55,092 nucleotides of DNA from Gemmatimonadota bacterium (GCA_038128265.1 JAYPJE010000027.1:1-55092); one strand, 5' to 3'; shown: positions 19,003 to 49,509, counted from the first letter of the stretch. Numbers and translations are program-made. Notes: a model not told the origin generated them from the sequence alone.

Positions 19003-19012
19003 GAGGTCGGCT

Positions 19013-19891: not shown

Positions 19892-19931
19892 TTTTTTGTA
19901 ATGCGAATACGTTAGCCAAGGAGGAAGTTCG

Positions 19932-21646: not shown

Positions 21647-21647
21647 A

Positions 21648-26242: not shown

Positions 26243-26245
26243 CCT

Positions 26246-28184: not shown

Positions 28185-28194
28185 GGAGAGACCG

Positions 28195-29858: not shown

Positions 29859-29860
29859 CG

Positions 29861-32403: not shown

Positions 32404-32479
32404 GCCCCTTGCAATGAGCGGCCTTTTGCGCGATGTTTTCGGCCGTCTATTGAAAAATCACCTACAGGGAGGAAAGAAC

Positions 32480-33535
32480 ATGGGCAAGCTACGAGTCGGA
32501 GTGATTGGCGTCGGAGGTATTGCGCGCACGCATATGCCGGGCTGGGCCGCATCCGAGCATGCCGAAGTCGTCGCCGGAAGCGATGTAAACGAAGCCGCCC
32601 TGAACAGCTGGGGGCAGGAACACGGCGTGAGCAAACTGCACGCCGATCCAGCCGCGTTGTTCAGCGATGGCGATATTGACGTAATCGATATCTGCACACC
32701 CAATATGTACCACGCGCCGCTAAGCATTGCCGCGTTGGAAGCGGGTAAGCACGTGCTGTGTGAAAAACCGCTGGCGCCGACGCCGGACGATATCCGCAGC
32801 ATGATTTCCGCGCGCGACCGGTCCGGCAAAACGCTAATGACGGCGCAGCACTTTCGCTTTCAGGGCTCATCCAAGGCGATGAAGGCGGAAATCGAAACCG
32901 GGGCGCTGGGCGATATCTACCACGCGCGCAGCTGGATGCTTCGGCGCGCCGGTGCGCCGACCGGCGGCGGCTTTATTCTCAAAGAGCACAGCGGCGGGGG
33001 GCCGTGTATTGATATCGGCGTGCACATCCTCGACCTAACGCTCTGGTTTATGGGCAATCCGGAGCCCGTAGCGGTCACCGGCGTCGCGCGCGCCGAACTA
33101 GCGCATAGGGCGGGAGCCTTTAGCCAGTGGGGCCGCAAAGAAATTCCGCCGCAGTACGATGTGGAGGATTTTGCCGCGGCCTTCGTGCGCTTTGACAATG
33201 GAGCCACGTTGGTCATTGAGGTCAGCTGGCTGCTGCACCACGATACGCAGGGTGAAGATATGCAGATGTGGCTCTACGGAACGCAGGGCGGAGCCCATTG
33301 GCCCAAGTGCGAGCTTTACGAGAGCAACTACCAGACGCGTCAGCAGTACAATCGCCAGCTCAAGCTAATGTACGATGGCCTGGAGGCGCATGCGCAGGAG
33401 TGCGTCGAATTTGCGCAGGCCGTGGCGGAAGGCCAGCCCTCTCCCGTGCCGGCCGAGCAGTCGCTGCAGGTGCTGCAGATTCTCGATGGGATCTATCGCA
33501 GCCAGCAGAGCGGCGGGGAGGTTCGGATCGTCTAA
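32480..33535 (+). CDS. Gfo/Idh/MocA family oxidoreductase
   Basis: VGVIGVGGIA, GKHVLCEKP, GGGPCIDIGVH. Start placed at ATG 32480 behind GGAGG. Confidence 0.93.
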   Translation: MGKLRVGVIGVGGIARTHMPGWAASEHAEVVAGSDVNEAALNSWGQEHGVSKLHADPAALFSDGDIDVIDICTPNMYHAPLSIAALEAGKHVLCEKPLAPTPDDIRSMISARDRSGKTLMTAQHFRFQGSSKAMKAEIETGALGDIYHARSWMLRRAGAPTGGGFILKEHSGGGPCIDIGVHILDLTLWFMGNPEPVAVTGVARAELAHRAGAFSQWGRKEIPPQYDVEDFAAAFVRFDNGATLVIEVSWLLHHDTQGEDMQMWLYGTQGGAHWPKCELYESNYQTRQQYNRQLKLMYDGLEAHAQECVEFAQAVAEGQPSPVPAEQSLQVLQILDGIYRSQQSGGEVRIV

Positions 33536-33550
33536 GCGAGCCATACCGCA

Positions 33551-33594
33551 ACGCAAAAGGCCTCCATCTTCGACGAGATGGAGGCCTTTTGCGT
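33551..33594. terminator. Bidirectional terminator hairpin
   Basis: Perfect 19-bp inverted repeat acgcaaaaggcctccatct / agatggaggccttttgcgt with a 6-nt loop, between convergent genes. Confidence 0.85.
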
Positions 33595-33640
33595 GTGCAA
33601 TGCTGTCGCTGCCGTGTTGCCGCGGCGCATGGCGTGGAGG

Positions 33641-34828
33641 CTACGCGTTGTTTCCGGCGATATCGTCGTCGATTGGCAAGACAATGGAAAAGGTCGTGCC
33701 TCGCCCCAGCTTGCTTTCGACGTGGATTGTGCCGCCGTGGTTTTCAATAATGCCTTTGCAAATAGACAGGCCGAGCCCGGTGCCGCTATTTCCCTTAGTT
33801 GTAAAAAACGGTTCAAAAATACGTTCGAGCGCGTCCGGGGCAATGCCCGAGCCATTGTCCCGAATTTGCACCTCGATAGACTGGTGGTTAAGCGCTTTGG
33901 TAGAAAGGGCGAGCTGCCCGTCCGCTTCGAGTGCATCAATGGCGTTATTAATGAGGTTTAGCAGGACCTGTGAGATTTGCTCGGGGTCGACGTTGACCCA
34001 TTCGCGCGCTGTCAGGGAGCGCGAGATATCGATACTCTTCTGCTTTACTGGATGGATCAGAAGATCCAGACAGTGTTCGACGAGCTTGTTGATATCTGTA
34101 GCTGTCTTAACGGGGTGTTTTTTGCGAGAAAAGTCGCGCATGCTCTCCATGATGCTGGCGGCGCGAAAAATCTGTTCCGTCGCCGTGGACAGCGAAGCGC
34201 GCTGGTCGGCGCTGATATTGTCCGATTTTGACACCGTTTCCACCCATCCCACGGCAATTGTAAGCGGGGTCATCACTTCGTGTACGATGCCGGCGGCCAG
34301 GCGGCCCAGCGTCGACAGGCGCTCGCTGTGTAACAGCTGCTGAGTGCGCTCGACGACGCGCTGCTCGAGCGTCGCGTTTAGCTCGCGCAGCTCCTGATTG
34401 CTCTCGCTCAGCGAGTCGGTGAGCGAAAGGTTGGACTGGATGAGTTCGAAACGCTCAAAGCCCTGCTCTATAGCCTGAGCGAGCTCGACGGAGTTCCATG
34501 GCTTGTGCAGGTAGCGGTGGACTTCTCCCTCATTTATAGCCGCGATTGCCGCCTCAATATCGGCGTGCCCGGTAAGCAGCATGCGAAATGTTTGGGGCGA
34601 GAATTCGAGGACGCGGTGCAAAAACGTCGCGCCGTTCATGCCGGGCATGCGCATGTCGGACACGACGACTGCCGCATTGTGCTCTTCGAGTAACGCTAGG
34701 GCCTCTTCGCCGCTCGTGGCTGTAATCACGTTGTCTGCGACGTGGCGCAACTCGCGCTGCAGGGCGCGCAGAATTTCCGTTTCATCGTCTACGCAGAGGA
34801 CGACTCGTTGGTAGCTATTCACGGGCAA
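33641..34828 (-). CDS. Hybrid histidine kinase (REC-HisKA-HATPase)
   Basis: VDDE, SDMRMP, KPW; H-box AAGIVHEVMTP; NLINNA, DNGSG, FFTTK, GTGLGL. Confidence 0.93.
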   Translation of the reverse strand: MPVNSYQRVVLCVDDETEILRALQRELRHVADNVITATSGEEALALLEEHNAAVVVSDMRMPGMNGATFLHRVLEFSPQTFRMLLTGHADIEAAIAAINEGEVHRYLHKPWNSVELAQAIEQGFERFELIQSNLSLTDSLSESNQELRELNATLEQRVVERTQQLLHSERLSTLGRLAAGIVHEVMTPLTIAVGWVETVSKSDNISADQRASLSTATEQIFRAASIMESMRDFSRKKHPVKTATDINKLVEHCLDLLIHPVKQKSIDISRSLTAREWVNVDPEQISQVLLNLINNAIDALEADGQLALSTKALNHQSIEVQIRDNGSGIAPDALERIFEPFFTTKGNSGTGLGLSICKGIIENHGGTIHVESKLGRGTTFSIVLPIDDDIAGNNA

Positions 34829-34834
34829 TACCGA

Positions 34835-35491
34835 TCATGTTCGCTCTGTTTTCTGCGAATAGTGGACTTGTTTCGGGTCTCGCAGCTGCGACAGGGCGTC
34901 GTCTAGCTGCTCCTTCCAGCCGTGTAGGAGGGCATCCCGTTGAGAAATTAGACCGCGCAGCTGCTCGTTTTCAGCGCGCAGCGCCTCCAGCTGATCGCCT
35001 GAGTGGGAACCGGCCGACGCGCGTCCGGCCAGCAGGCTGGCATTCTCCTTTTTCAGCTGTGCAATAACGTGTTTCAAATCGTCTATAATACCCTCGCGCT
35101 GGCGGGAGAGGTCGTGAAAAACCAGGGCCTGAAGAATGCAGTGTTTCAGTTCGATATCGTCCCACGGTTTGCTGAGATAGCGAAAAATCTGCCCTTCGTT
35201 GATGCTGCGCACGGCATCGTCTATGTCGCTGTAGCCGGTCAACAGGATGCGCACGGCGTGGGGGGCGATATGTATGCTCTGTGCCATGAGCTGTGCGCCG
35301 CTCATGCCGGGCATGCGCTGGTCAGAAACAATGACGGAGACGTCGTTCTCTCGGAGTAGCTCAAGGGCTTCGTGCCCGCTCGTGGCTAGCAGCAGGCGGT
35401 AGTCCTCGCGGCGAAATACGCGCCGCAGGCCGTTGAGTATACCCACTTCGTCGTCTACAAAGAGTAGCGTATAAGAGTAGTGCGTCTGCAT
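34835..35491 (-). CDS. Response regulator (REC plus coiled coil, no DNA-binding domain)
   Basis: FVDDE, SDQRMPG, LTG, KPW, followed by a heptad-rich tail. Confidence 0.92.
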   Translation of the reverse strand: MQTHYSYTLLFVDDEVGILNGLRRVFRREDYRLLLATSGHEALELLRENDVSVIVSDQRMPGMSGAQLMAQSIHIAPHAVRILLTGYSDIDDAVRSINEGQIFRYLSKPWDDIELKHCILQALVFHDLSRQREGIIDDLKHVIAQLKKENASLLAGRASAGSHSGDQLEALRAENEQLRGLISQRDALLHGWKEQLDDALSQLRDPKQVHYSQKTERT

Positions 35492-35503
35492 CAGAACTTT
35501 CGA

Positions 35504-37672
35504 TCAGGCCTCGTCGGAGGGTGCTTGCTCTCCCGAACTGGCTTGCCCTTCGGCACCGTCTTCGCCCTCTGCAGTGCCGGCAATGGGCTTTGCTTCTATG
35601 CCCATAGGCTCCAGCCGAAAGCAGAAGGCGGCGTGATCGGCGCTCAGCGTATCCTCGCTGTCGCCCATTACCAGGCGAACGCCGGCAAACGTCTTGCCCG
35701 TAACGACAATTTCCGCATTCTCTAGCGAGGAGTCCAGCATTTTTTTGAGCTCTTCTCTCTCGTTAAATGATTTTTCTCTGATCTCTAACAGGTCGTAGAG
35801 CTTTTTGACGATTTCCCGCACGATTTTCTTTTTGCCGGGCGCCGTTTTGCGCAGGGCCGCTTTGATATGCGCTGAGTTGGCTTCGTCCAAACCGAGGGTG
35901 CGCAGGAGGCGCATGGAGTTCGAATCGCAAAAATCGATTTGTTCGCTAATCTTGTTTATGCGCGCCGATACCTTTGGGTCGGCGCTGATGCTGAGCAGCG
36001 TGCCGGAGGTGGTTGCCGAACCGGCGTACTGACAGGTGATGCAGTTGGCGGCAATCGCCTCGCCACCGACGATGCTGCCGCCGCGGTCGCCGCCGCCGGG
36101 ATGGACCGTGATATTGCCGTTGGAGCGAACGAGTGAGTTAAAGGCATAGCTGCCAACTTCGATATCGCCTTTGGCCGCCACGGCGGCATTGAGAATAAAC
36201 TGCGCCTGCACGCAGCCCTCGGAAATGGCGCCCAGAGCCGCAACGCTCGTGCCGCCGCCAATGATGCCGCGCGAAATAATAATGTCTCCATTGGCTCGTA
36301 GGGTGGCCCCGCTTTCGACGTTGCCGCCAACGGTAATCGTACCTCCGGCTCTGATCGTGAAACCCGGGCCCACATCGCCGTTGATCTGCACGTCGTGGGG
36401 CGTATCTATATTGCCGATTTCGTAGTCGACATTGCCGCTTACGACAAAAACTTGTTTGACGTCAATACTGCCCTTGCTAACGTGCACATTGCCGCTGGTT
36501 AGGGCGTAGAATTCAGTAGGTGGGTTGCCTTCGCCCCGCACGTTTTCGCCGGCGCTATAGCTCAGCGAATCGTCGCCGTCGTTGGCCGTAAGCGCGTTGC
36601 CACATACGTCGATACCCGCCTGCCCCTTCGTGGCTTCGATAAGCGTGCCGAGCAGTTGCCCTTCCTCAACGGAGATCACCGAGTTGCGTTCGCGCAGGTC
36701 AATGCTGCCGTCTGGGTTGATCTTTCCCGCAAGTTTCTCCGGGTTGAACCCCAAGTCCATTCGCGCGTCCTGGCCGTGAACCGGAGGGGTTCCACGGGCG
36801 ATAAGGCGCGCTTTGGGTTGTTTGTAGGGAAGGGGTTTCCCGCTGACGAGGTCCATGGTTTTAGTAACGAATCCAGACTGGATGCTCATCTCGTTGAGCG
36901 TGGCCTGCAGCCTCTCCGAACCGATAGCCGGTTGGCTTTTGGGCAGCGGAAAGTGGACGAAATAAGCGCGCATTCGGTCTTCGGTCATCCAGATGGGTGG
37001 AATGACCGATATCTTGTCCTGTATTTGGCAGACGTATCCCATCTGATCGGCGACAAAGCGGTTGTCTGTTTGGGTTACGTGCGGGCCCGCTTCTAACGAG
37101 ACGTCTTCGCCTGGCTTTTCGATGCTGTTGCCGAGCACGTCGCGACCCGGGGTGCCTGGCGTGGCCGCGACGATCGTTGCCAGTTCATCGCCCGGCATGA
37201 CCAAAATACACTCGGTGCTTTTGGCAAGCACGGCTTCAATCGTTTCCTGTTCAAAGGCGTCTTTAATCTGCCTGTAGGCGGGCGGGGGACCGCTGTGCTC
37301 TTTTAAGAAGGCGTATTCGATGCGCCCGTTGGCACCCGGTTCGGCCAGCGTGCCGAGCGCGACGACAAAGTTGCCCTGCACCGTCGCTTCGGGATCTTCC
37401 AGGCACTTTTCGGCCAGTTCGGCCACGGCGTCGCCGTCATGGCCGTGCTTTATGTCGTACTGGTCGGTGAGCGCAGTAGTAATGTCGCGATTGGAAAGGT
37501 TGTCGTGTCCGCCGAAGGAAATCTGTTTGACGACGGCCTGCATGCGGTCGTCGGATATATTGACCACCATCCAACTCTCCGGATCCTCGCCGAAGGATTG
37601 GCGCTCTGGTGGGAGTTCGACCTCGTCGAGCTCTTCCGTATCGCTTTCGGTAGCCGTTTGCTGATTATTCAT
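35504..37672 (-). CDS. FapA/DUF342 family protein (long form, duplicated N-terminal module)
   Basis: ISDDRMQA, ARGTPPVHGQDA, GSIDLRE, SGNVDYEIGNI, Gly-rich beta-helix repeats, IVGGE, coiled coil. Confidence 0.88.
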   Translation of the reverse strand: MNNQQTATESDTEELDEVELPPERQSFGEDPESWMVVNISDDRMQAVVKQISFGGHDNLSNRDITTALTDQYDIKHGHDGDAVAELAEKCLEDPEATVQGNFVVALGTLAEPGANGRIEYAFLKEHSGPPPAYRQIKDAFEQETIEAVLAKSTECILVMPGDELATIVAATPGTPGRDVLGNSIEKPGEDVSLEAGPHVTQTDNRFVADQMGYVCQIQDKISVIPPIWMTEDRMRAYFVHFPLPKSQPAIGSERLQATLNEMSIQSGFVTKTMDLVSGKPLPYKQPKARLIARGTPPVHGQDARMDLGFNPEKLAGKINPDGSIDLRERNSVISVEEGQLLGTLIEATKGQAGIDVCGNALTANDGDDSLSYSAGENVRGEGNPPTEFYALTSGNVHVSKGSIDVKQVFVVSGNVDYEIGNIDTPHDVQINGDVGPGFTIRAGGTITVGGNVESGATLRANGDIIISRGIIGGGTSVAALGAISEGCVQAQFILNAAVAAKGDIEVGSYAFNSLVRSNGNITVHPGGGDRGGSIVGGEAIAANCITCQYAGSATTSGTLLSISADPKVSARINKISEQIDFCDSNSMRLLRTLGLDEANSAHIKAALRKTAPGKKKIVREIVKKLYDLLEIREKSFNEREELKKMLDSSLENAEIVVTGKTFAGVRLVMGDSEDTLSADHAAFCFRLEPMGIEAKPIAGTAEGEDGAEGQASSGEQAPSDEA

Positions 37673-37690
37673 TGCCGCTGCGTGCGCTGA

Positions 37691-38710
37691 TTAGAGGTCC
37701 CAGTCCTTGAGTACGGCGGCTATCTCACCCTTCCACGAGTTCATATTGCTGTGTATCTGCGCATCGCTTATAGCCATGGCTGCCTGCAGGGCAAAGCTGG
37801 CAACGACGCCCAGTTCGTCGGTTGAAATGGCTTCTCGGGTTCGCGGCGATGCCACCTCAATGAGTCCGAGCACGCTGTCGCCGCGGACTATGGGCGCAAC
37901 GGCAAAGGGGGCGATGCCCGATCCATCGGTGTGCTCCACATTGACCGGCTGTCGGGTTTCGGAAACGCGGGCGAAGGCCTCTATATGAAGCGGCGTTGGC
38001 TGAATCTTTAGCACGTCATTTGGTTGGAGAATGCGGCCGGCATAGTCGACGGCAGCGGCCGCTTTGGGTTGGCCTTCGGCCATCAAATAGACGACCGCTG
38101 CCTCCATTTCAATAATTTCGGAAACGACCTGCAGCACGAGTTTGAGCGTTTCTTCCAGAGAGTGCACGCTAAGCATGTGCTGCGCGATGCGGTCCTTGCC
38201 GGCCAGCTCTTTGACTTTTAGCTGCAGCTCGCGCGTGCGCTGCTGAACGGCCTCTTCTAACCGTGCATTAAAGTGCTCCAACTCCTGGTTTTTTTGGATG
38301 AGTTCGGCCGTGAGCTGCCTGTTTTCAAACTCGAGTTCAAACTGCTTTAGCCCGTCGCGAACAGACTGTTTGATATCTTCGTCGTTCCAGGGCTTTGTTA
38401 TGTAGCGCGATATGCCGCCCCGGTTAATTGATTCGGTGACCGCCTCTACATCGGAGAAGCCCGTCAGCATAATGCGCTTACAGTGGGGGGCTATCTCAAT
38501 GGAGCGAGCGAGAAATTCAGGGCCTGTCATATTCGGCATGCGGTAGTCGGATATGATGAGCGATACCTCGTTCTGTTCGAGAACGCTCAGGCCTTCGGCA
38601 CCGCTGGTGGCGGACAGTACCTGATAGCCCTCGCGGAGGAAAATGCGGCGCAGCGCGCTGATAATGCTTTCCTCGTCATCGACCAATAGTAGGGTGTGTT
38701 GCATGGCCAT
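37691..38710 (-). CDS. Response regulator (REC-coiled coil-GAF)
   Basis: LVDDE, SDYRMP, KPW; GAF motifs VAPIVRGDSVLGLIEV and FALQAAMAI. Confidence 0.9.
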   Translation of the reverse strand: MAMQHTLLLVDDEESIISALRRIFLREGYQVLSATSGAEGLSVLEQNEVSLIISDYRMPNMTGPEFLARSIEIAPHCKRIMLTGFSDVEAVTESINRGGISRYITKPWNDEDIKQSVRDGLKQFELEFENRQLTAELIQKNQELEHFNARLEEAVQQRTRELQLKVKELAGKDRIAQHMLSVHSLEETLKLVLQVVSEIIEMEAAVVYLMAEGQPKAAAAVDYAGRILQPNDVLKIQPTPLHIEAFARVSETRQPVNVEHTDGSGIAPFAVAPIVRGDSVLGLIEVASPRTREAISTDELGVVASFALQAAMAISDAQIHSNMNSWKGEIAAVLKDWDL

Positions 38711-38719
38711 GGGGATCTC

Positions 38720-39949
38720 CTAGTGTGAAGCTGTGTCCAGCGAGCGCACTTGCTGCGCTATGCGTTCTACGTCGCTCGGGGTCAAATCCAATATATCATA
38801 CACTTTGGGACTGCTGATGGGAAGCGTTTCCGTCGTCTCATCACCCCGCTCAATATGATGAGACAAGGCGTTGGCCAGGTGGATCAGACAGGCCAATTTC
38901 TTGTCGACGCTGGCGTTGGTCGGCTGGTGGTGGTAGCGCACCGCTTCGCAGATTCTGGGTGGGAGGTTCCACAGCTCCGAAGCATAGCCGCCAATTTCAG
39001 CGTGGTCGGTCCCCAGCACCTCGCGTTCCACCGCGCAAATGTCTTTCCCCTGGCCTAGCTTGCTTTGGACTTCGTCGTAGCGCGCATCGGCAAAGCGCGC
39101 CAAGATGAGTTTGCCCAGATCGTGCATCGTTCCAGCGAATAGGGCCGTTTCCTGCATGGAGCGGTCGCCGTTCTGGGCGCGGGCGATATGGCGTGCTACA
39201 AAGCCACACGACAGCGAGTGCTGCCAGAGCTGATCGCTGTTAAAATTGGTCGATTTACTATTGGCCAATTGTTGAAAGGCGCCGGTGGCCAGCACGAGGT
39301 TTTGCACGAAATCCAGTCCCAGGACAAAAATGGCCCGACTAATCGTTTCTACGCTGCGCCGCTGACCAAAGAACGTCGAATTGGACACCTGCAGCAGACG
39401 AGCCGCTAGCGGGGGATTTTGGTTGATGGCATCGGCGACGACCTCTGCAGACTTTTCGCTGGCTTCGTTGAGTGCTTGCTGAACGGCCTGGTAGGTCTGG
39501 GGTAGCGGCGGCAGCGCCTCAAAGCTGTTGATCAGATTGTGCAACCCGGGGCTGAACTCCTTGGGTGAACTGCTCTTCTCCAACAGATCGCGCACGGTCT
39601 GTTTTAACTCGTCATCGTCCCACGGCTTGGCCACCATTTCCTGAACGTTGATCTCAGAAAAAATACGGGTGACGGCTTCCTTTTCGGCGTACCCGCTGAG
39701 CACCATGCACGCGGTGTTGGGGTGGCGTTTGCGCACGCGGCTGAGAAATTCGACTCCGTTCATCTCGGGCATGCGAACGTCGGAAATCACCAGGTCAACT
39801 TCGTGCTGGCCTAGCAGATTAAGTCCCTGCTGGGCGCTCTTGGCCAAGAGCACTTTGTAGCCTTCGCGATGAAATAGGCGCCGCAGCGAGCGGAGAATAT
39901 TTTCCTCGTCATCGACGAAGAGAATCGTCTTTTCATCAGCAGTAGTCAT
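38720..39949 (-). CDS. Response regulator (REC-HDOD)
   Basis: FVDDE, SDVRMP, KPW; HDOD motifs LPPLP, LLQVSNSTFFG, LWQHS, MHDLGKL, DHAEIG, WNLP, YHHQP. Confidence 0.93.
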   Translation of the reverse strand: MTTADEKTILFVDDEENILRSLRRLFHREGYKVLLAKSAQQGLNLLGQHEVDLVISDVRMPEMNGVEFLSRVRKRHPNTACMVLSGYAEKEAVTRIFSEINVQEMVAKPWDDDELKQTVRDLLEKSSSPKEFSPGLHNLINSFEALPPLPQTYQAVQQALNEASEKSAEVVADAINQNPPLAARLLQVSNSTFFGQRRSVETISRAIFVLGLDFVQNLVLATGAFQQLANSKSTNFNSDQLWQHSLSCGFVARHIARAQNGDRSMQETALFAGTMHDLGKLILARFADARYDEVQSKLGQGKDICAVEREVLGTDHAEIGGYASELWNLPPRICEAVRYHHQPTNASVDKKLACLIHLANALSHHIERGDETTETLPISSPKVYDILDLTPSDVERIAQQVRSLDTASH

Positions 39950-41745
39950 AGGGTGTCCTTAGTATTCTGAGGGATCTTTATTGTAAAGGTGGTTCCTACG
40001 CCAACCGTGCTATCGACGAGAATGTGTCCGCCGTGCAGCGATACGATGGTGTGATACGCGAGGCTGAGGCCCATGCCGGTGCCGCTGCCTACGTCCTTTG
40101 TCGTAAAGAACGGTTCAAAGATACGCCGTTTTATCTCTGGGGTCATCCCCTTGCCCGTATCGCCAATTTCAACGCAGATAAAATCGTCTTCCTGATAGGT
40201 GCGCAGCGTGATGGTGCCGCGCTCTTCAATAGCCTGTGCGGCGTTGAGCAACAGCCCCATAAAGACCTGGTTGAGCTCGCGTGGGTAGCAAACGCATTCG
40301 CCGATTTGGCCGTATTCCTTGTGCACGGTGGCCGTTTTGCCAATTTCACCGGCGGCTAAGCTGAGGGTTTTATCGAGGTTGGAATTGATGTCGACAGGCG
40401 CTTTCTCATCGCGGTCGACGTGCGAGAAATCGCGCAGGTTGGCAACGATGTCGCGCACGCGCTCCAACCCTTCGCGCGATTCCCGTATCAATTCGTCGAT
40501 GTCGGAGAGCACGTAGTCGATGCCGGACGTGCTGCGCTGGCTCGTCGCGTAGTCGAGCAGGGCGCGCGCCTCTTTTTCATCGCCCTCTCGCAGGTGTTGT
40601 TCCAGCGCTTGGTAGGTTTCGATGAGCGCCGATAGATCACGCGCGTATTCTTCCAGCGTATTAAAGTTGGCAAAAATAAAGCCCAGAGGATTGTTTAGTT
40701 CGTGGGCTACGCCGGCAGCTAATTGGCCGATAGATGCCATTTTTTCGGCCTGCAGCATCTGCACCTGGTTTTGCTCTGCCGCGTGGTTGGCGTGTTCGGT
40801 TTCTACTGGGCGCTTGGACTGCGCGTCGTCAGCGGCCGGGAAAAAGGTAGTTTCGCAGCCGTAGACGTCGACGCAAAGGGCCTCTGTGCGCGGCACCAGC
40901 GTCAACACATAGGTGCGCTTGTCGTCGTCGACCAGAGCGACTTCCGTGCTTTGGCGACTGGCAAATACGGAGGCTGCTCTGAGCTGCCAGGCATCGGGAA
41001 TGGGCGCGCCGACTTGGGTTTGCCAATTGTCGATGACGGGGGCTGCGGCGGCATTGGCATAGAGCAGTAGGCCATCCTTCGAGAGGCGCAGCAGCGGGTG
41101 GGGGCTGTCGCTAGAAAAGCGGGCAAGTAATTCGAGCTCGCCGTCGGCTTTTGTATCCGCCCGTGCTTCCGCTCGAGGCGAGGAAGCTCTGTCGGGATTT
41201 TTGGGGGCGGCGAGTGGCCGGGGTGCCCACAGCAGGTAGGCCAGCGCGGCCGAGCAGAGGGCGGCCAGCGCGGCGACGGGCACGGCCCACCGCAGGTAGT
41301 CGCCCTGCCCGCTGCGCACGCAGAGAAAGAGCATGCCGCGCGTTCGCTCGTTGGGGTCGATGGGCTCAAAGAGAAAGGTATAGCCACCGCTGTCGTAGTG
41401 GCCCTCGGGAATGGCGCGCTCGGGAATGCGCTGGGCGTCGCCCGCCTCGTTGGCACAGGCGGCCAGGCGCGTTCCATCGATTGCGTAAAGCGCTGCCGCT
41501 GCAACGTGTGGCTGTTTCGCACACTGGGCCGCGAGGAGTGCGTCAAGCTGGCTCGGTGCTGCGCTGGAGACGCGCAGGTCGGGTGGCTCGAACCGATGCG
41601 CGGCGGCGTGTAGCCGCTGGAGGTCGCGTTCGCCGGTTTCGCGCAGGCCGCCGTAGACGAGAGCGGCACTGGCCAGTAGACAGGCTAGGCTGAGGCCCGC
41701 TAGCAGGGATCGTTGCTGCTTGGTTAAATCTGCGATTCCGGCCAT
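39946..41745 (-). CDS. Membrane sensor histidine kinase (2 TM, periplasmic domain, PAS-like, HisKA, HATPase)
   Basis: Two TMs, PHPLLRLS..G.LLYAN PAS-like start, EKMASIGQLAAGVAHELNNP, FFTTK..GSGTGMGL. Start placed at ATG 41745. Confidence 0.92.
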   Translation of the reverse strand: MAGIADLTKQQRSLLAGLSLACLLASAALVYGGLRETGERDLQRLHAAAHRFEPPDLRVSSAAPSQLDALLAAQCAKQPHVAAAALYAIDGTRLAACANEAGDAQRIPERAIPEGHYDSGGYTFLFEPIDPNERTRGMLFLCVRSGQGDYLRWAVPVAALAALCSAALAYLLWAPRPLAAPKNPDRASSPRAEARADTKADGELELLARFSSDSPHPLLRLSKDGLLLYANAAAAPVIDNWQTQVGAPIPDAWQLRAASVFASRQSTEVALVDDDKRTYVLTLVPRTEALCVDVYGCETTFFPAADDAQSKRPVETEHANHAAEQNQVQMLQAEKMASIGQLAAGVAHELNNPLGFIFANFNTLEEYARDLSALIETYQALEQHLREGDEKEARALLDYATSQRSTSGIDYVLSDIDELIRESREGLERVRDIVANLRDFSHVDRDEKAPVDINSNLDKTLSLAAGEIGKTATVHKEYGQIGECVCYPRELNQVFMGLLLNAAQAIEERGTITLRTYQEDDFICVEIGDTGKGMTPEIKRRIFEPFFTTKDVGSGTGMGLSLAYHTIVSLHGGHILVDSTVGVGTTFTIKIPQNTKDTL

Positions 41746-41770
41746 GGGGTAGGAGCGAGCAGGGCGCGCA

Positions 41771-43045
41771 TCAATCTTTGGGAATCTTAATGGTAAAGGT
41801 CGTCCCCTGGTCTGGTTCGCTATTGACCAGCAGCTGGCCGCCGTGTTTCTCAACGATGATTTGATAGGCCATACTGAGTCCCAGGCCCGTCCCTTCGCCG
41901 ACCTTCTTCGTGGTAAAGAACGGCTCGAAAATACGCTTTTGCACCTCCGGCGGCATGCCGTGCCCGTTGTCGGCAATCTCCACGCATACGTGGCTTTCCT
42001 CTTCGTAGGTGCGAATGCGTATTAGGCCCCCTTCTTCGATGGCGTGTCCAGCATTGACCAGCAGATTCATAAAGACCTGGTTGAGTTCCTGCATAAAGCA
42101 GGACACCTGGACAATTTGGCCGTACTGCTTGTCGATGGTTGCCTTGTACTTGAGTTCATTCCAAACGATGTTGAGCGTGCTTTCGATGCCTGCGTTTATA
42201 TCGGCGGGCATTTTTTCTTCGCGCCCCACGTGGGAGAACTCTTTCAGGTTGAGAACAATTTTGCGCACGCGATCGGCGCCCTCGCGCGACTCCTGCACGA
42301 GATCGCCTATGTCATCCAATAGATAGGATAGATCGATGCGCTCCTTTTCGCCCGTGACCGCCGTTAGGCGTTCGTTTGCCGTGGTTAGATCGCCCTTTTC
42401 GACGGCTTCTTCGAGCGCGCCATAGGCGGTAAACAGGCCGGTAATGTCTTCCATATACTCGGCCAGCGTACCCAGGTTGCTGTATATGAAACCCATTGGG
42501 TTATTGATCTCGTGTGCCACACCAGCGGCCAGTTGACCAATGGAGGCCATTTTTTCCGACTGCAGCAGTTGCGATTCGAGAAGCTTATAGGTCGACAGGT
42601 CGAGCGCTACGCAAACCACGCCCGTTAGTTGGCCCTCGGCATAGAGGCCGGAGCTCGAAAAGAGCACGGGAATGGAGTCGCCTGCCTTGGTGCGATACTT
42701 GGCCTCGTTGCGCGGGGCCGCATTGGTCAAATTGGCGATTGCTCCCAGGTCGATGCTGCTGTCGGGTGCACCTAAACTGCTCAGCGGCTGTCCGAGCAGC
42801 TCCGTGCGATCGTAGCCGAGCATGTCGAGCGTAGTCTCGTTCGCCGATTGGATAATGCCCTGGGCATCGGCGACTACGAGGCTCGAGAGCATTGAGTTGA
42901 TTACGTTCTCGAAGTCGTCGCGCGTTTTTTCTACCTGCTGGTTGGCCGCGGAGAGCAGGTGGCTTTTGTCTTCGACTTCCCGCTGTAAGCGCTGGATTTT
43001 TTCTTCGGCCTGTGCCAGGCGTTTGGCGAGTGCGCTCTCTTCCAT
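41771..43045 (-). CDS. Cytoplasmic PAS histidine kinase
   Basis: N-terminal coiled coil, PAS (SANETTLDMLGY...ELLGQ), EKMASIGQLAAGVAHEINNP, FFTTKKVGEGTGLGL. Start most likely ATG 43045 behind GGAG. Confidence 0.93.
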   Translation of the reverse strand: MEESALAKRLAQAEEKIQRLQREVEDKSHLLSAANQQVEKTRDDFENVINSMLSSLVVADAQGIIQSANETTLDMLGYDRTELLGQPLSSLGAPDSSIDLGAIANLTNAAPRNEAKYRTKAGDSIPVLFSSSGLYAEGQLTGVVCVALDLSTYKLLESQLLQSEKMASIGQLAAGVAHEINNPMGFIYSNLGTLAEYMEDITGLFTAYGALEEAVEKGDLTTANERLTAVTGEKERIDLSYLLDDIGDLVQESREGADRVRKIVLNLKEFSHVGREEKMPADINAGIESTLNIVWNELKYKATIDKQYGQIVQVSCFMQELNQVFMNLLVNAGHAIEEGGLIRIRTYEEESHVCVEIADNGHGMPPEVQKRIFEPFFTTKKVGEGTGLGLSMAYQIIVEKHGGQLLVNSEPDQGTTFTIKIPKD

Positions 43046-43262
43046 TTTCATACACTCCAGATGCAAAAATGAGGTACCAGACCCATCGACCCATGCGCGG
43101 AGGCAGGGGCCAAATACGCGGAGCGCGAGTGGCCGGTTGGGCGGGCGCGCTTTGCCAAATTAAAGTATCTAAACTGCGGCAAATCGCAAAGTGAAAGGAG
43201 CGATTGGTCGGGTGCGCCGGCGGGCATAGTAGGAGCCGCGGGTGCAGCAGTCTATGCGTTGA

Positions 43263-43835
43263 TCACGGATAATATGCTGTGCAGAGTCGAGAGGGGAGCG
43301 CGTTCCACCACGATGCGGTGGCATCAACCCGCAGCAGGTGAGTTTGGCCGGGCGCGTCGCCGGCGCCCAAGCCGCGAGCAAAGGCCACGCAGTGCGGATC
43401 GTCAGCCAGTAGGGCGGAGAGTGCGCGCTCTAGGGGCGCGTCGGCATACAGGAGGTAGGCCGCGCGGAGGCAGGCGCTTGGGTGGTCGAGTAAATAATCG
43501 ACGTTCCAATGGAGTGTTTTACTCGGTATGCGCTTGCTCTGAGTCGGCCCACACAGGCCGTGTTCGATAAAGTGTTTCAACAGCAGTGCGCGGAGTGCGT
43601 GCGGTGGGCGTCCATTGCAGCGTGCAGCGTGGCGCAGCAGGCGGCTCGCTAGTGAAGATGCGCCCGCGTTGCCCATGGCCGAGCCGATATAGACATAGCT
43701 GGCCGCCTGCAGGGCGATGGGACGACCGCCGGCAAAGCGCCCGAACGCGAGGTGTGCGGCGCGCACCAGGTCAATGCGCAGTAGGTAGCTGCCGCGCGGC
43801 TGTGCACAACCGAAGCAACGGATGAGAGGGGGCAA
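43263..43835 (-). CDS. DUF123 / GIY-YIG (Uri) nuclease-family protein
   Basis: GSYLL, YVYIGSA.G, L..RL.RH, K..HWNVDYLL, E, GxGA.D. Confidence 0.8.
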   Translation of the reverse strand: MPPLIRCFGCAQPRGSYLLRIDLVRAAHLAFGRFAGGRPIALQAASYVYIGSAMGNAGASSLASRLLRHAARCNGRPPHALRALLLKHFIEHGLCGPTQSKRIPSKTLHWNVDYLLDHPSACLRAAYLLYADAPLERALSALLADDPHCVAFARGLGAGDAPGQTHLLRVDATASWWNALPSRLCTAYYP

Positions 43836-43852
43836 TGGAGGCGCAGAATGCC

Positions 43853-46009
43853 CTAGATCGATCGGTGAGCTACGTGCTCTTCTTCCAAGTAGAACGCCGA
43901 GCGCTTGATTTCCTTGGAAACCATAAAAATGGCGTCGCCAATGTCAATTTCTACGCCAGAGTGCACCGTGCCGGCGATTTCGATGGTCGCACCTTCGGCA
44001 ACCTCGGCATTTTTCTCGATCAGCGGTTCCATGTCGGTGTTCACCTTTTCGCGCAGCTCGGCCATCTCATACAGTTTGTCGACCGCTTCTGAAATCATCG
44101 CCTTGCGTGCGTTAGGGGCCTGGCGAATCAAATTTTTCAGACGTTCGACATCGATAGAGTCGACGCCTAAAGAGTGCAGCTGGCGATCGATGGAGACGTC
44201 CAGTTCGCGCAGCTGCTTGCGCAGCTTGGCGAGTTTGATAGCGGAAACGGGGTCCGCGTTAAGGCCTATAATCGTGCCGGCAGTCGTCGAGGAGCCGATC
44301 TGAGTTGCCTGAATTGACTGGGCGGCAAAGACCTCGCCGCCGACGATGCTGCCGCCGCGCTTGCCGCCGCCGGTGTGGACGGCTATTTGCCCGCCGCAGC
44401 GCACCTGAGCATTGAAGATGTAGCTGCCAATTTCTATGCCTTCCTTGGCCAATACGGCGGCGTTTTGAATAAACTTACACTGCACGGTGCCCATGGAAAT
44501 CAGGCCGCGCGCCACCACATTTGTGTGCTCGCCGACGATGCCCTGCGCGACGATGACATCGCCCTGAGCTACGACGGTGGCGCCGGGCTCTATGGAGCCG
44601 CCAATTGTAATGGTGCCGCCCGACTCAACGGTGAAGCCCGAGCGCACCGTGCCGGCGATTTGCACGTCGATGGGCGTGTCGATATTGCCCGTCTCGTAGT
44701 CGACGTCGCCGCTGATGACGTAGAGCGGTTTGACGTGTAGCGTATCGCCCGCTACGTGCGCGTTGCCTTCGACGGTAGCGTAAAAGGCGGTAGGAGGGTC
44801 GCCTTCGGCGCGCACGTTCTCTCCCGCCTTGTAGACGTACTCCGTGCCGTCGGTCGCGGGCAGCTCTTCGCCAAAAATCGTATAGCCCTTCAGGCCTTCA
44901 GTCGCCGGGTGCACGGTGGCTAACTGCTGGTCCTCGGCCACGCCAATAACCAGGTTGCGCTCGCGAAAGTCGATGCTGCCATCGGGTAGGATCGTGCCGG
45001 CGCGCTTCTCCGGATCAAACGTGTATTCGATGCGCGTGTCCTCGCCGTTCATGGCTTTGCTCCCACGGGCAAGCGTCAAATAGCGCTTGCGCCTGGGCGA
45101 GAGCCGTTTTGAACAGAGCTTTTCCACCGCTCGGTCGTCGGTGCCTTGGCTCACGCCGGCTTGGGCGATCATGGCGTGCACCATTTCGGGTGTCGGCAGG
45201 GGCGGTTTGGCCAGCAGTTCGAGGTGTATGTAGACCGCGCGCATGGCGTCGGCCGATAGCCACAGGGCCGGTGCGATAGAGAGCTCGTTGTCGTTCAGAC
45301 CTAGGTAGCCGTATGCTTCGGCGATAACGGCATCTTCTTCGATGCGCACGTGCGCGCCGGCTTCTATGGGCGCTTGGCGGCCGGACACGTTGAGTTCTTC
45401 GCCGAAGAGATTGCGTCCCGGCTTGCCGGGGGTCGGCGGATGGATGCGCGCAAGAACTTGGTCTGGGGCTACGATGATGCCGCGCGCATCGCTTTTCATT
45501 ACGGCTTCTAGGGGCTGTTGGCGTATGGCCGCATGCACCCGAAACGCTTCGGTCAAGCGCTCTTCGCTCAGTCCTTTTGACCATTCCAAGCGGCCGTCGT
45601 CACCGGGTATTGCGCTGGTGGCGCGCGCTATGACCTGATTGCACTTCATCACGCTGTGCGGCTTTGTCAGCGCGCGGCCCAGCACGGCGACAATCGCCTC
45701 CTCATCGATGCCGTGTTCGATGTTGTAGTGCTCGGTCAGCGCCTGGGCGATGTCGCTCGGCGTTAAATCCGTATCGCCTCCGGGTGCCAACTGGGTCAGC
45801 GTGGCCGACGTGCCGCGCTCGCTGACGCGCACGGACATCCACGTGGCAGGTCCCTGTCCAAAGCTCTGGCGTTCATCAGACGGCGCATTCTCCCCGCCGT
45901 CTTGGTCGCCGCTGCGTTCCAAGAAGCGCTCATCGAGGCTGGCAGCACCTTTGTCACTCCGCGCGCGCGCGCGTCTGCTCGGCTGTATCATAGCTGGTCC
46001 GCTTTGCAA
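43853..46009 (-). CDS. FapA/DUF342 family protein (second long paralogue; start uncertain)
   Basis: Same architecture as 35504-37672: ERQSFG..P..WM, GSIDFRERN, SGDVDYETGNIDTP, RGGSIVGGE. Confidence 0.88.
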   Translation of the reverse strand: MQSGPAMIQPSRRARARSDKGAASLDERFLERSGDQDGGENAPSDERQSFGQGPATWMSVRVSERGTSATLTQLAPGGDTDLTPSDIAQALTEHYNIEHGIDEEAIVAVLGRALTKPHSVMKCNQVIARATSAIPGDDGRLEWSKGLSEERLTEAFRVHAAIRQQPLEAVMKSDARGIIVAPDQVLARIHPPTPGKPGRNLFGEELNVSGRQAPIEAGAHVRIEEDAVIAEAYGYLGLNDNELSIAPALWLSADAMRAVYIHLELLAKPPLPTPEMVHAMIAQAGVSQGTDDRAVEKLCSKRLSPRRKRYLTLARGSKAMNGEDTRIEYTFDPEKRAGTILPDGSIDFRERNLVIGVAEDQQLATVHPATEGLKGYTIFGEELPATDGTEYVYKAGENVRAEGDPPTAFYATVEGNAHVAGDTLHVKPLYVISGDVDYETGNIDTPIDVQIAGTVRSGFTVESGGTITIGGSIEPGATVVAQGDVIVAQGIVGEHTNVVARGLISMGTVQCKFIQNAAVLAKEGIEIGSYIFNAQVRCGGQIAVHTGGGKRGGSIVGGEVFAAQSIQATQIGSSTTAGTIIGLNADPVSAIKLAKLRKQLRELDVSIDRQLHSLGVDSIDVERLKNLIRQAPNARKAMISEAVDKLYEMAELREKVNTDMEPLIEKNAEVAEGATIEIAGTVHSGVEIDIGDAIFMVSKEIKRSAFYLEEEHVAHRSI

Positions 46010-46085
46010 TGAGGCTAAATGCCTTAGGGAGACATCGTGGGCTCCTTCCTGCTAATATACAAACTCAGGTGTGTCAAAGCACTAA

Positions 46086-46736
46086 TTATCTGTTTTCTGT
46101 TTTGACCCTATAGGAATGCAGCACGCGGCGGACGAGCCCTTCGAGCGGTTGTGCGCCGGAAATCGTGCAGTGGGCGCGTTCTTTAGTGGGTATAACATAC
46201 TGTTTTGTCATGGGATAGACTTGCTCAAAAAATTGGCGGCGAATGGCCTCTGCGCTGCGGCCGCGCTCTGCCGCGTCGCGGTTTAGTCTGCGTTGGAGGC
46301 AAAGGTCTGCGTCGGCATCGACATACAGGCGATAGGTGTAGAGAGGCAATAGTTGATGAAAGTGAAGGGAAAAAAGGCCCTCTACGACGATGTGTGCAGC
46401 CGGCTCAATGCGCCGCGTATGCGCGCTGCGGGAGTGCGTGACAAAGTCGTAGATGGGCGCGTCTACGGGCAGGCCGCTGGCCAGGTGGCTCAGGTGGGCA
46501 CACAGCAGGTCTGCGTCAAGGGCTTGCGGCGCGTCGAAATTGCAGCGTGCGCGCTGGTCGGCCGGCAGGTGGGCTCGGCAAGCGTAATAGGCGTCAAGCG
46601 GAACGTGCACGGCACTGGGTAAAGCCGCCACAAGCGCGCGTGCCAGCGCTGTTTTGCCGGCGCAGGACGGTCCGGCGATGGCAAGTAGGTGGGGTCTGGC
46701 CCTAGCGGCGCTCGTGCAGGAAGCGGCGGAACCCAT
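46086..46736 (-). CDS. udk: Uridine kinase family protein
   Basis: IAGPSCAGKT, LDAYY, NFDAPQALD, PIYDFVTHSR, VEGLF, RRLNRDAAERGRS, YVIPTK. Confidence 0.88.
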   Translation of the reverse strand: MGSAASCTSAARARPHLLAIAGPSCAGKTALARALVAALPSAVHVPLDAYYACRAHLPADQRARCNFDAPQALDADLLCAHLSHLASGLPVDAPIYDFVTHSRSAHTRRIEPAAHIVVEGLFSLHFHQLLPLYTYRLYVDADADLCLQRRLNRDAAERGRSAEAIRRQFFEQVYPMTKQYVIPTKERAHCTISGAQPLEGLVRRVLHSYRVKTENR

Positions 46737-48420
46737 CTATATCGAGCGCGTTGAGCACGTCTTGGGGCCCCAGCCACCCTTTGCGCGCACAGCCGATGCC
46801 GTAGGTGAGGTGATCGAGGCCCGTCGTGCGGTGCGCATCGGTATTGACGCTGAGGATGACGCCGGCCTGCTGTGCTTTGCGCACGTGGCGCCAGTCGAGG
46901 TCCAGGCGTGCGGGATGGGCGTTGATCTCAATGCTGACGCGGTGCTGGGCAGCGGCTGCAAAGATCGCCTCAAAGTCGAGGTCGTAGCCCTCGCGGTCGA
47001 GCAGCAGGCGGCCGGTTAGATGGCCGATGATGGTGGTAGCTGGATGTTCAATGGCGCGGACAAAGCGCTGCGTCATGGCGTCGCGGTCGAGGTTGAACTG
47101 CGAGTGCACGGAGGCGACGACAAAGTCGAATTGTTCCAGTATGGAATCTTCGTAGTCGAGCGAGCCGTCGGCGAGGATGTCCGACTCAATACCCTTGAAA
47201 ATGTGAAACGGGGCCAGCCCTTCGTTGAGCGCGTCGATCTCGTCCCACTGGCGTTTGACGGCGTCGACCTTTAGACCGCCGGCGTAGGCGGCCGACTGGC
47301 TGTGGTCGGCCATGCCCATATAGGGGTAACCCCGCTCTTGTACTGCGGCAGCCATGGCGGCGATGGAGTCGGCGCCGTCGCTGTAGGTCGAATGCAGGTG
47401 CAGCATGCCGCAGATATCGCTGGCGGAAACCAGCGCGGGCAGTTGACCCTCGGCCGCTGCGTCAATCTCGCCCAGTCCCTCGCGCAGCTCCGGCGCGATA
47501 TAGTCGAGGCCGAGCGCGCGGAAAAAGGCTTCTTCGTCGGCGCATTCAATGCGTTCATCGCCCCTAAAAAGGCCGTACTCGTTGATCTTGAGCCCCATGT
47601 CATTGGCGCGCGCCCGCAGCGCGACGTTGTGATCCTTGCTGCCGGTAAAGTGGTGCAGCACATAGGGAAATTCATCGTCGGCAACGACGCGCAAATCGGC
47701 CTGTATGCCGTCGTGCAGGCGCACCGCGCTCTTGGTAGGGCCTTGCTGCAGCACCTCGGCGACCGATTCATGCTCGGCAAAGAGGGCGCTGCTGGCTTCG
47801 GGGTCGCTCGAACTGAGCACAAAATCGATGTCCTTAACCGTTTCGCGCCGGCGGCGCAGCGAGCCGGCCGCTTCTACGCGCATCGTGGCCGGGTGGGCGC
47901 GCAGTGCCTCGAGCAGGGGCTGCGCGCTCTGGCGCGCCCTATCGGCGCGCGAACGGTCCTGGTAGCGGCGAATGTGCTCGATCCCCTTGAGGATATTGTC
48001 CTGGGTCTTCTTGCCAAAGCCCTTCAGGCCGCCCAGTCGGCCGTCGCGGCAAGCTGCCGCCAGCGCCTCGAGGTCTTCGATGCCCAGCGCACTGCGAATG
48101 GCGTTGATCTTGCGGGGCCCCAGGCCGGGCACGCGCAGCATATCGAGCAAGCCCTGCGGGACTTCGGCGCGCAGCTTTTCGTAGGCCTGCGCCGTGCCGT
48201 GCTCGGCGTATTCGCCAATTAGGGCGGCCACGCTCTTGCCGATGCCCTTGATTTCGGTGAGGGCGTCGCGGGCGATGTACTCTTCGAGGTCGCCGTCGAA
48301 GTGTTCGATGGTGCGCACGGCATTGGCATAGGCGCGCGTGCGAAAAGCGTCGGCACCGCTCAGCTCGAGGAGCGTGCAGTGTTGGTCGAGGAAGTCGGCT
48401 ATCTCGCGCGCACTTTTCAC
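46702..48420 (-). CDS. polX: DNA polymerase X with C-terminal PHP domain
   Basis: FRTRAY, HhH motifs (IKGIG, VPGLGP, LKGFG), AGSLRR..ETVKDID, HFTGSK.HN; PHP HLHSTYSDG, EINAHP.RLD, NTDAH. GTG start overlaps the cysQ stop. Confidence 0.95.
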   Translation of the reverse strand: MKSAREIADFLDQHCTLLELSGADAFRTRAYANAVRTIEHFDGDLEEYIARDALTEIKGIGKSVAALIGEYAEHGTAQAYEKLRAEVPQGLLDMLRVPGLGPRKINAIRSALGIEDLEALAAACRDGRLGGLKGFGKKTQDNILKGIEHIRRYQDRSRADRARQSAQPLLEALRAHPATMRVEAAGSLRRRRETVKDIDFVLSSSDPEASSALFAEHESVAEVLQQGPTKSAVRLHDGIQADLRVVADDEFPYVLHHFTGSKDHNVALRARANDMGLKINEYGLFRGDERIECADEEAFFRALGLDYIAPELREGLGEIDAAAEGQLPALVSASDICGMLHLHSTYSDGADSIAAMAAAVQERGYPYMGMADHSQSAAYAGGLKVDAVKRQWDEIDALNEGLAPFHIFKGIESDILADGSLDYEDSILEQFDFVVASVHSQFNLDRDAMTQRFVRAIEHPATTIIGHLTGRLLLDREGYDLDFEAIFAAAAQHRVSIEINAHPARLDLDWRHVRKAQQAGVILSVNTDAHRTTGLDHLTYGIGCARKGWLGPQDVLNALDIDGFRRFLHERR

Positions 48421-49205: not shown

Positions 49206-49239
49206 AAGGCATTGTCCGAGTCGGGTATGTGCGCGGCTG

Positions 49240-49268
49240 AAAATAGGGGATGCGGCCAGCGCGGGCAA
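49240..49268 (-). promoter_or_regulatory. Putative sigma70 promoter of cysQ-polX-udk
   Basis: Minus strand TTGCCC-N17-TATTTT. Confidence 0.45.
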
Positions 49269-49291
49269 TGCTTGGTAGGGGATGGACAGTA

Positions 49292-49431
49292 CAAAAAAAG
49301 TCCCCACGTCCCTGTGGGGGTTAAGCCAACGTCCCTGTCGGCTGGATATGCGCCGCCGTGCGCCGAACGCATGTCCTTTTAACCCGTTTATCGGCAAATT
49401 GCCCATCCTCTCCAGCGCTCTTTTTAACGGG
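49292..49431 (-). ncRNA. Candidate structured small RNA with two ACAGGGACGU hairpins (Csr/Rsm-type sites) and a U7 tail
   Basis: Consecutive stems, two identical AGGGAC loops, terminal hairpin followed by 7 T on the minus strand. The 5' end is uncertain. Confidence 0.5.
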
Positions 49432-49439
49432 GCCTCACC

Positions 49440-49468
49440 TTGACATATGGAGGGGTCAAAAGTAGATT
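49440..49468 (+). promoter_or_regulatory. Putative sigma70 promoter of the 49510 gene
   Basis: TTGACA-N17-TAGATT; the -35 box is half of a TTGAC-N10-GTCAA inverted repeat. Confidence 0.6.
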
Positions 49469-49509
49469 GAAAACACACCACTTAACCATTTTCCAAACGC
49501 AGAAACTGA

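Follow-up and report, generated by a model that had tools for sequence, protein, structure and literature searches.

FapA/DUF342 proteins are widespread, but little of their biochemistry is known; they have been studied in three organisms, with regulation known only through a link to the sugar phosphotransferase system in Vibrio. According to the available part of a preprint, the FapA of Vibrio vulnificus is a recruited, polar protein, and EIIA-Glc sequesters it away from the pole in a manner dependent on phosphorylation state (10.64898/2026.10.23.761471). The same portion of that source describes Helicobacter pylori FapA as a cytoplasmic, β-strand-rich protein that co-purified with MotB, represses soft-agar migration, limits motility, promotes surface behaviour and is dispensable for flagellum building (10.64898/2026.10.23.761471). 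In Borrelia burgdorferi, fapA (bb0267) lies within a flagellar operon, and FapA associates with σ28 modules, as stated in the accessible text (PMC11607428). Here we describe a different setting for these proteins: a 55,092-nucleotide stretch from a Gemmatimonadota bacterium (GCA_038128265.1 JAYPJE010000027.1:1-55092; hereafter the window, meaning the whole stretch) in which, between 33,641 and 46,009 on the minus strand, two FapA genes keep company with a compact run of two-component signalling genes, one of which encodes a regulator whose subfamily is found almost exclusively beside FapA.

The first of these genes, FapA1 (35504-37672, minus strand; 722 amino acids), has two FapA_N stretches and a FapA β-solenoid (170.3 and 184.7 bits) and directly follows, on the same strand, the gene for a REC-GAF response regulator (37691-38710, minus; 339 amino acids; REC 81 and GAF 48 bits). 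When the GAF part of this regulator was searched for in 41 related genomes (numbered with a G, the host's own being G000), 24 distinct genes were recovered from 16 genomes. All but one, G015:C1:727407-727838, were located directly upstream of FapA on the same strand. Two to three such pairs occur in single genomes (G015, G021, G030, G026 and G028), and a REC-GAF gene directly upstream of a long FapA recurs across further genera and families (G011, G012, G015 twice, G021, G026, G028 and G030). Because 23 of its 24 genes are so placed, the GAF subfamily is close to a dedicated FapA partner, and this reverse synteny is the strongest result of the analysis.

Forward synteny gave the same pairing from the other side. 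A scan with a FapA alignment located 79 FapA loci in public genomes (numbered with an L), 78 of them with gene calls made as longest non-overlapping open reading frames (ORFs), and two neighbours on each side were scanned, 286 ORFs in all. The gene directly upstream of FapA on the same strand belonged to the REC-GAF family at 18 of the 78 loci, all labelled Latescibacterota-type or Desulfobulbia/Desulfobacterota-type and many of them closely related, so that they do not amount to 18 independent events. Thirteen of these genes carry REC and GAF by Pfam, one carries GAF only and four carry REC with an unassigned C-terminal part; three of the last four were compared with the REC-GAF profile and aligned to it over their full length at 98.7-100% probability. 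The median gap between REC-GAF and FapA is 4 nucleotides at the 18 loci. Among the REC-GAF-linked records, L079 alone does not carry the label of a metagenome-assembled genome. A first-pass annotation of this DNA had made FapA the centre of the cluster, and both surveys find its position, after REC-GAF, conserved in related clusters. The conserved unit is REC-GAF followed directly by a long, two-module FapA, rather than the whole island.

At four loci labelled Desulfobulbia/Desulfobacterota the arrangement consists of a kinase, REC-GAF and FapA, followed by convergent transporter genes. These kinases match the core of the window's PAS kinase best (249-258 bits, versus 104-111 for its REC-kinase core), and the three that cover the region contain the H-box EKMASIG.LAAGVAHEINNP, as in the window. 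Kinase type, regulator and FapA travel together across two phylum-level groups. Two other regulators of the window are also found with FapA. The nine best HDOD matches in the 41 genomes (at least 39% identity) include seven that adjoin FapA, in the closest relatives only, and a REC-coiled-coil gene directly follows FapA in L057, L060, L061 and L062.

Both FapA1 and FapA2 (43853-46009, minus; 718 amino acids; two FapA_N stretches plus FapA; 193.8 and 176.6 bits, respectively) exceed the Pfam cut-offs for PF20250 and PF03961 (27 and 31 bits) and are thereby members of FapA/DUF342; they are 41% identical to each other, and no NCBIfam model matched either of them or the neighbouring DUF123 ORF described below. 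The AlphaFold2 model of FapA1 (predicted local distance difference test, pLDDT, 83.5) contains two similar N-terminal modules at residues ~30-225 and 230-410, with acidic, disordered ends to the chain; folded separately, the N-terminal modules reach a pLDDT of 89.5. The C-terminal half is modelled as a β-helix (~415-562), a long helical hairpin (566-651) and a small β domain (654-696), which is the order of solenoid, hairpin and small β subdomain seen in the Vibrio and Borrelia proteins. Structural comparison with VIA-align matched residues 406-702 to β-helix folds (best Z 14.3, root-mean-square deviation 4.3, 180 residues aligned), although of a generic kind (antifreeze, TPS and LpxD folds), and gave the N-terminal modules middling matches only (Z at most 7.7), to the small β-barrels of bL27 and exosome Rrp4/Csl4. 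A Foldseek search of the PDB returned no match at E ≤ 0.001 for either the whole model or its N-terminal half. The model suggests a non-enzymatic protein that looks like a binding platform.

The relationships of these proteins were examined in a quick tree of 79 FapA proteins, built by maximum likelihood with Shimodaira-Hasegawa-like approximate likelihood-ratio test (SH-aLRT) support, in which long branches and compositional heterogeneity were flagged and the deep order is unsure. FapA1 belongs to a clade of eight (SH-aLRT 99), whose complete members L057, L060 and L061 show REC-HDOD, REC-GAF, FapA and REC-coiled-coil genes. FapA2 belongs to a clade of five (SH-aLRT 100) nested within a mostly REC-GAF-linked group. 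Both fall in a group of 27 (SH-aLRT 89) made up of 15 REC-GAF-linked proteins, five of the FapA2 type and seven others (L058, L059, L062, L067, L069, L071 and L074), the loci L058, L059 and L062 beginning at a contig edge. Outside this group stand the σ28-linked proteins (L126 and L134), those of Che clusters (with CheB/CheX or MCP/CheW) and the 575-residue spirochaete forms; the Che-linked loci, L110, L112-L116, L118 and L124, are all outside the window clade.

The signalling genes around FapA1 were delimited as longest ORFs on the minus strand, and their domains were assigned by Pfam scan (E ≤ 0.01 for the island families). Read 5' to 3', the run begins with a cytoplasmic PAS-HisKA-HATPase_c kinase of 431 amino acids (41771-43066; H-box AAGVAHEINNP) and a membrane histidine kinase with HisKA and HATPase_c (39946-41745, a likely but ambiguous start, the longest ORF reaching 41976). 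A REC-HDOD response regulator of 409 amino acids follows (38720-39949; HDOD 182.9 and REC 92 bits, with HD at 33 bits against a cut-off of 22), then REC-GAF and FapA1, a receiver with a conserved coiled-coil tail (34835-35491; 218 amino acids; REC 73 bits) and, last, a REC-HisKA-HATPase_c kinase of 395 amino acids whose receiver is N-terminal (33641-34828; HATPase_c 106, REC 79 and HisKA 31.7 bits). In the same direction the intergenic distances are 25, −4, 9, 18, 12 and 6 nucleotides, the first of which requires that the membrane kinase start at Met 41745, as its longest ORF overlaps the PAS kinase instead.

This listing upholds the gene run of the first-pass annotation almost gene for gene and bears out its claim of gaps of 25 nucleotides or less, or overlaps. 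FapA2 was said to lie about 0.8 kb upstream, and the interval indeed measures 786 nucleotides; it is not empty, however, since it contains an ORF of 190 amino acids matching DUF123 (43263-43835, minus; 58.8 bits, cut-off 25). FapA2 itself is preceded by PRK, PolX and IMPase genes. Across the nine genes the Pfam scan found no HTH, GGDEF, EAL, HD_5/HD-GYP (PF13487) or Hpt (PF01627) domain, in agreement with the absences claimed earlier for the first four, and within the island it likewise found no PilZ, CheA, CheW, MCP, CheB or CheR. The term "phosphorelay", under which the cluster had been described, does not hold: because Hpt is absent and the sole kinase-linked receiver is N-terminal, in the third kinase, the genes form a branched two-component cluster and not a strict His-Asp-His-Asp phosphorelay.

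In other respects the components are those of classical two-component systems. All three kinases have HisKA and HATPase_c, with H-box histidines visible in the translations, and all four receivers read VDDE ... SD.RMP ... L(T/S)G ... KPW, motifs that correspond to the acidic pocket, phospho-acceptor Asp, Thr/Ser and Lys when assigned from general knowledge of receivers rather than by structural alignment. What a classical system would add, a DNA-binding output domain, is lacking, no HTH family having been matched in the nine genes. The receivers are 39-52% identical in pairs, and in NCBIfam each scores best (166-228 bits) against NF053512, a model for HD-GYP response regulators, over its receiver-plus-linker part; receiver and helical linker are ~50% identical to RpfG-family REC-HD-GYP proteins. 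These similarities point to four receivers of one type, the type normally fused to a cyclic di-GMP (c-di-GMP) phosphodiesterase, and they fit the earlier description of four intact receivers of a single kind. The PAS-kinase core shares 56% identity with the membrane-kinase core, and both share 38-40% with the core of the REC-kinase, which is a possible second-tier kinase. Two hydrophobic, putatively transmembrane segments in the membrane kinase (residues ~12-34 and 151-175, counted from the 41745 start) flank an extracytoplasmic loop of ~115 residues. The tail of the REC-coiled-coil protein (~95 residues) is conserved and helical in all five aligned orthologues, with an invariant W192 and a QRD motif.

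The run closes on a hairpin at 33545-33600, directly after the REC-kinase stop codon and before a convergent gene. The hairpin has a near-perfect 19-bp stem flanked by A and U tracts (minimum free energy −39.8 kcal/mol, z −8.3, equalled by 0 of 200 shuffles) and probably acts as a bidirectional intrinsic terminator that marks the unit's 3' end. No internal minus-strand terminator was found within the run, which we take as support for one operon-like, putatively co-transcribed signalling unit. In the 196-nucleotide gap upstream of the PAS kinase no σ54 −24/−12 motif was seen by eye. The convergent gene (32366-33535, plus) encodes a GFO/IDH/MocA oxidoreductase, and genes of this family adjoin FapAs of three paralogue groups (also at G000:C2:47687-48700, L103:9184-10197 and L120:8833-9459), convergent in the window, G001-G004, G006, G011, G020 and L061, and co-directional after the FapA of the G000:C2 type and in L120.

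Comparison of 20 regions around FapA1 relatives, with ORFs scored against the window's own domains, showed how far the island is shared. The entire run, with DUF123 absent, is kept in G001, of the same genus (87% FapA identity), and L060 and L061 retain its 3' half at 45-48% identity, so the gene arrangement goes beyond chance. Neither the membrane kinase nor the REC-coiled-coil gene was found in G002 or G004, and in G006 only FapA2 and the REC-kinase are kept, the FapA1 block being missing. REC-kinase orthologues adjoin FapA in G001, G002, G004, G006 and L060. The DUF123 ORF is whole in G002, survives as remnants in G004 and G006 and is missing from G001; it looks like a come-and-go insertion and probably lies outside the signalling unit. 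The seven-gene island is plastic and is not itself the conserved entity. Stepwise accretion was considered as its origin, but the claim of a direction was dropped: the FapA1 block also stands beside GFO in other genera (G011, G020, L061), so that loss in G003 and G006 is just as likely as gain.

The window corresponds to contig C27 in an assembly of 4.29 Mb (84% complete) whose nearest public relatives are metagenome-assembled genomes labelled Gemmatimonadota or Candidatus Latescibacterota; 20 DNA sequencing runs from 10 studies contain part of the stretch, which is found in estuarine or marine settings. Its genome encodes flhA, nine flagellin-N matches, four FapA genes and 15 HDOD-matching stretches, and by these genes the host is flagellated. 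Presence of a FapA1-like match (E ≤ 1e-20) was compared with that of full-length FlhA across the 41 related genomes: 19 have both, 19 have neither, two have FapA only (G005, with an FHIPEP fragment only, and G028, with no FlhA match) and one, G023, has FlhA only; six genera of the same family are without both. That long FapA tracks flhA is a suggestive pattern rather than a statistical result, with shared ancestry as a confounder. Fifteen of the 19 full-flhA genomes encode, on the flhA strand and 3-4 kb downstream of that gene, a ~320-residue HDOD paralogue (G000:C4:114754-115464 in the host) that is ~34-35% identical to the HDOD protein of the window, and in this lineage an HDOD protein appears to be part of the flagellar cluster.

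Two irregularities were encountered in these searches. The third FapA of the host (G000:C2:44851-47584; L055:6852-9585) is split into two overlapping ORFs, a FapA_N part of 594 amino acids and a FapA solenoid part of 343, reflecting either a frameshift or an assembly error. Matches of ~100 amino acids to the middle of the FHIPEP/FlhA profile occur in nine genomes, namely G000 (C12:83871-84212), G001-G007 of the same genus and G020 of another; one in-frame stop interrupts them in G000, G004 and G006 (TGA) and in G005 (TAA), and none in G001, G002, G003, G007 or G020.

These observations can be assembled into a model in which the kinase with the AHEINNP H-box, duplicated here as a cytoplasmic PAS kinase and a membrane kinase, would phosphorylate REC-GAF, so that signals from both kinases would converge on this one regulator. 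Phosphorylation would then alter, by direct contact, how the GAF end engages FapA1, and FapA1, as a non-enzymatic two-module β-solenoid protein from a family whose members in V. vulnificus, Borrelia and Helicobacter work at the flagellar pole or motor, would be the output that alters flagellar assembly or behaviour. Flagellar assembly or behaviour, in a motile-versus-sessile toggle, would be the most likely target. REC-HDOD, REC-coiled-coil and REC-kinase would be lineage-specific branches that provide further outputs, act as phosphate sinks or form a second tier of kinases. The parts of this model deserve different degrees of trust. REC-GAF and FapA are very probably functionally coupled. Direct binding of REC-GAF to FapA has an even chance of being correct, and the flagellar target falls a little short of that; the phosphotransfer partners are putative. 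The model as a whole, a branched two-component network with a post-translational output through FapA, probably on flagellar behaviour or assembly, we believe and doubt in equal measure. Our literature search, which did not cover most subscription journals, found no published description of FapA within two-component clusters or with a REC-GAF partner, and we propose only tentatively that kinase, REC-GAF and long FapA may constitute an undescribed two-component class, present in at least two phylum-level groups and acting by phosphorylation-dependent capture or release of FapA.

Several observations weigh against this model, in addition to the shared ancestry already mentioned. The flagellar connection raised by the first-pass annotation stands for the genome, which contains flhA and flagellins, and fails for the neighbourhood, where no flagellar gene lies beside any of the four FapA genes: there is none in the window, the two other FapA copies adjoin metabolic genes, and FapA was not found next to fliA, flhF or flhG, the position of a flagellar-cluster FapA. 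In the assembly, flhA lies 72 bases from the end of its contig, beyond which a flagellar-cluster FapA is possible. In G028 (91% complete) FapA and REC-GAF occur with no FlhA match, and related genomes contain up to 9-11 FapA matches (G015, G021), a multiplicity that fits a general scaffold better than a single flagellar role. FapA2 has no REC-GAF partner, and it alone is left in G003, between GFO and PRK, the FapA1 block and the signalling genes being missing. The studied FapAs are distant, with ~14% identity between two of them in the available part of the preprint (10.64898/2026.10.23.761471). As to the transcription unit, a σ70 promoter consensus scan of 33000-50000 gave 9 sites versus 6.0 expected, no better than shuffles, and a terminator consensus scan of the same interval gave 19 sites versus 20.3 expected and missed the hairpin at 33545-33600; gene starts and neighbours depend on longest-ORF calls rather than on a gene finder.

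The multiplicity of FapA bears directly on the reading that survives best beside the proposed model, in which FapA would be a scaffold or localization hub gathering kinases and receivers, for example at the pole, and the HDOD, GAF and coiled-coil proteins would be the real outputs, acting upon different targets. The predicted non-enzymatic, modular architecture (two FapA_N modules, β-helix and long hairpin) would suit such a role, the V. vulnificus protein is, in the accessible account, itself recruited to the pole (10.64898/2026.10.23.761471), and REC-HDOD and REC-coiled-coil genes also travel with genes of the FapA1 clade. Adjacency is specific to REC-GAF, however, and does not extend to kinases generally, and the minimal Desulfobulbia-type unit has one kinase and one regulator, an arrangement to which a hub adds little. 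We consider a hub role unlikely.

The kinship of the receivers with HD-GYP regulators (NF053512) raises a second possibility, that of a second-messenger node in which HDOD and GAF, on receivers derived from HD-GYP phosphodiesterases, would sense c-di-GMP or cyclic nucleotides and FapA would be a downstream effector with a target not necessarily flagellar. Binding of c-di-GMP has been suggested for the HDOD domain and is known for SadB (PMC6543031); at L109, moreover, a REC gene and FapA are followed by a gene for an HD_5 protein. Against this, the island contains no GGDEF, EAL, HD-GYP or PilZ domain by Pfam, and ligand binding by HDOD is unproven in the available text of the same source (PMC6543031). 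We regard such a node as quite unlikely.

In a reading with transcriptional output, the REC-kinase would act on a DNA-binding regulator encoded outside the cluster, and the FapA genes would be co-regulated cargo. This kinase is intact, and the island offers it no evident partner; an HTH_17-REC gene is found two genes after FapA in L068, and a σ54 activator with a weak receiver is encoded 20 kb away in the window (11792-13162). This scheme leaves unexplained both the near-exclusive adjacency of REC-GAF and FapA and the existence of three-gene units without a REC-kinase, and we hold it to be improbable. Very improbable, finally, is a MinC-like FapA that regulates a cytoskeletal polymer in a cluster controlling division or shape instead of motility, for although the C-terminal half is a predicted β-helix and residues 451-492 of FapA2 match MinC_C, the match scores 27 bits against a curated cut-off of 33.2 with none for FapA1 (Pfam), the β-helix matches are generic and those of the N-terminal modules are to small barrels of middling Z, MinC is not among the fold-search results shown (β-helices and small barrels only), and a division role would not lead one to expect FapA to follow flhA.

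Elsewhere in the window, a plus-strand run at 18007-32403 encodes MoxR AAA_3, DUF58, an ABC transporter with a 1074-residue ABC_transp_aux/IFT52-GIFT protein, DUF4340, and BatA-VWA, VWA, TPR, BatD and TPR-SH3 proteins; it is a Bat/aerotolerance-like operon with a GldG-like ABC system attached. Two further large ORFs, at 5994-7406 (plus; 470 amino acids) and 7527-9062 (minus; 511 amino acids), match no Pfam family at E ≤ 1e-5.

The near-obligate pairing of REC-GAF with FapA, often in the company of its own kinase, offers a concrete upstream switch to examine, and the minimal three-gene unit is simpler to study than the seven-gene island. If the proposed model is true, it would provide a further case in which two-component signalling exerts its control between proteins and not through transcription, and it would link HDOD and this type of GAF, both poorly understood outputs, to an uncultured lineage's flagellar system.

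The described systems resemble this one in different parts. RpfG-type REC-HD-GYP proteins share the receiver and linker, at the identity given above and as the best NCBIfam match for all four regulators; here GAF, HDOD, a coiled coil or a kinase core takes the place of the catalytic HD-GYP domain, and no HD_5 match was found. The HDOD proteins GsmR (REC-HDOD, Xanthomonas) and SadB (Pseudomonas) affect flagellar gene expression, motility and biofilm by a mechanism that the accessible text gives as unknown (PMC6543031). The flagellar tie is alike, through the HDOD paralogue that 15 of 19 genomes carry downstream of flhA, whereas the HDOD protein of the window sits in a FapA cluster. A σ28-linked FapA belongs to the same family, and in L126 (Paenibacillus) and L134 (Synergistaceae) FapA directly follows a σ28-like gene; those proteins, however, are of 471-474 codons, with one N-terminal module, and fall outside the group of the window proteins in the tree. 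A motility-limiting output like that reported in the available text for H. pylori FapA would suit a signalling cluster, but that protein escapes PF03961, and the preprint text, so far as it is accessible, reports no two-component partner and does not contain the term "response regulator". A further parallel is V. vulnificus FapA, which is alike in Pfam families and in the C-terminal layout of solenoid, hairpin and small β domain and whose sequestration by a phosphorylation-dependent signalling protein, as described in the part of the preprint available, follows the logic proposed here for REC-GAF. The proteins described here differ in having two N-terminal modules and ~720 amino acids, in occurring as several paralogues per genome and in lying outside a flagellar cluster. 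The presumed controller differs as well, being a receiver-GAF protein here and, in the same accessible account, EIIA-Glc of the sugar phosphotransferase system there. If the model is true, FapA/DUF342 would gain a defined upstream switch, and the window would contain a receiver-based counterpart of the sequestration of FapA by EIIA-Glc in Vibrio.

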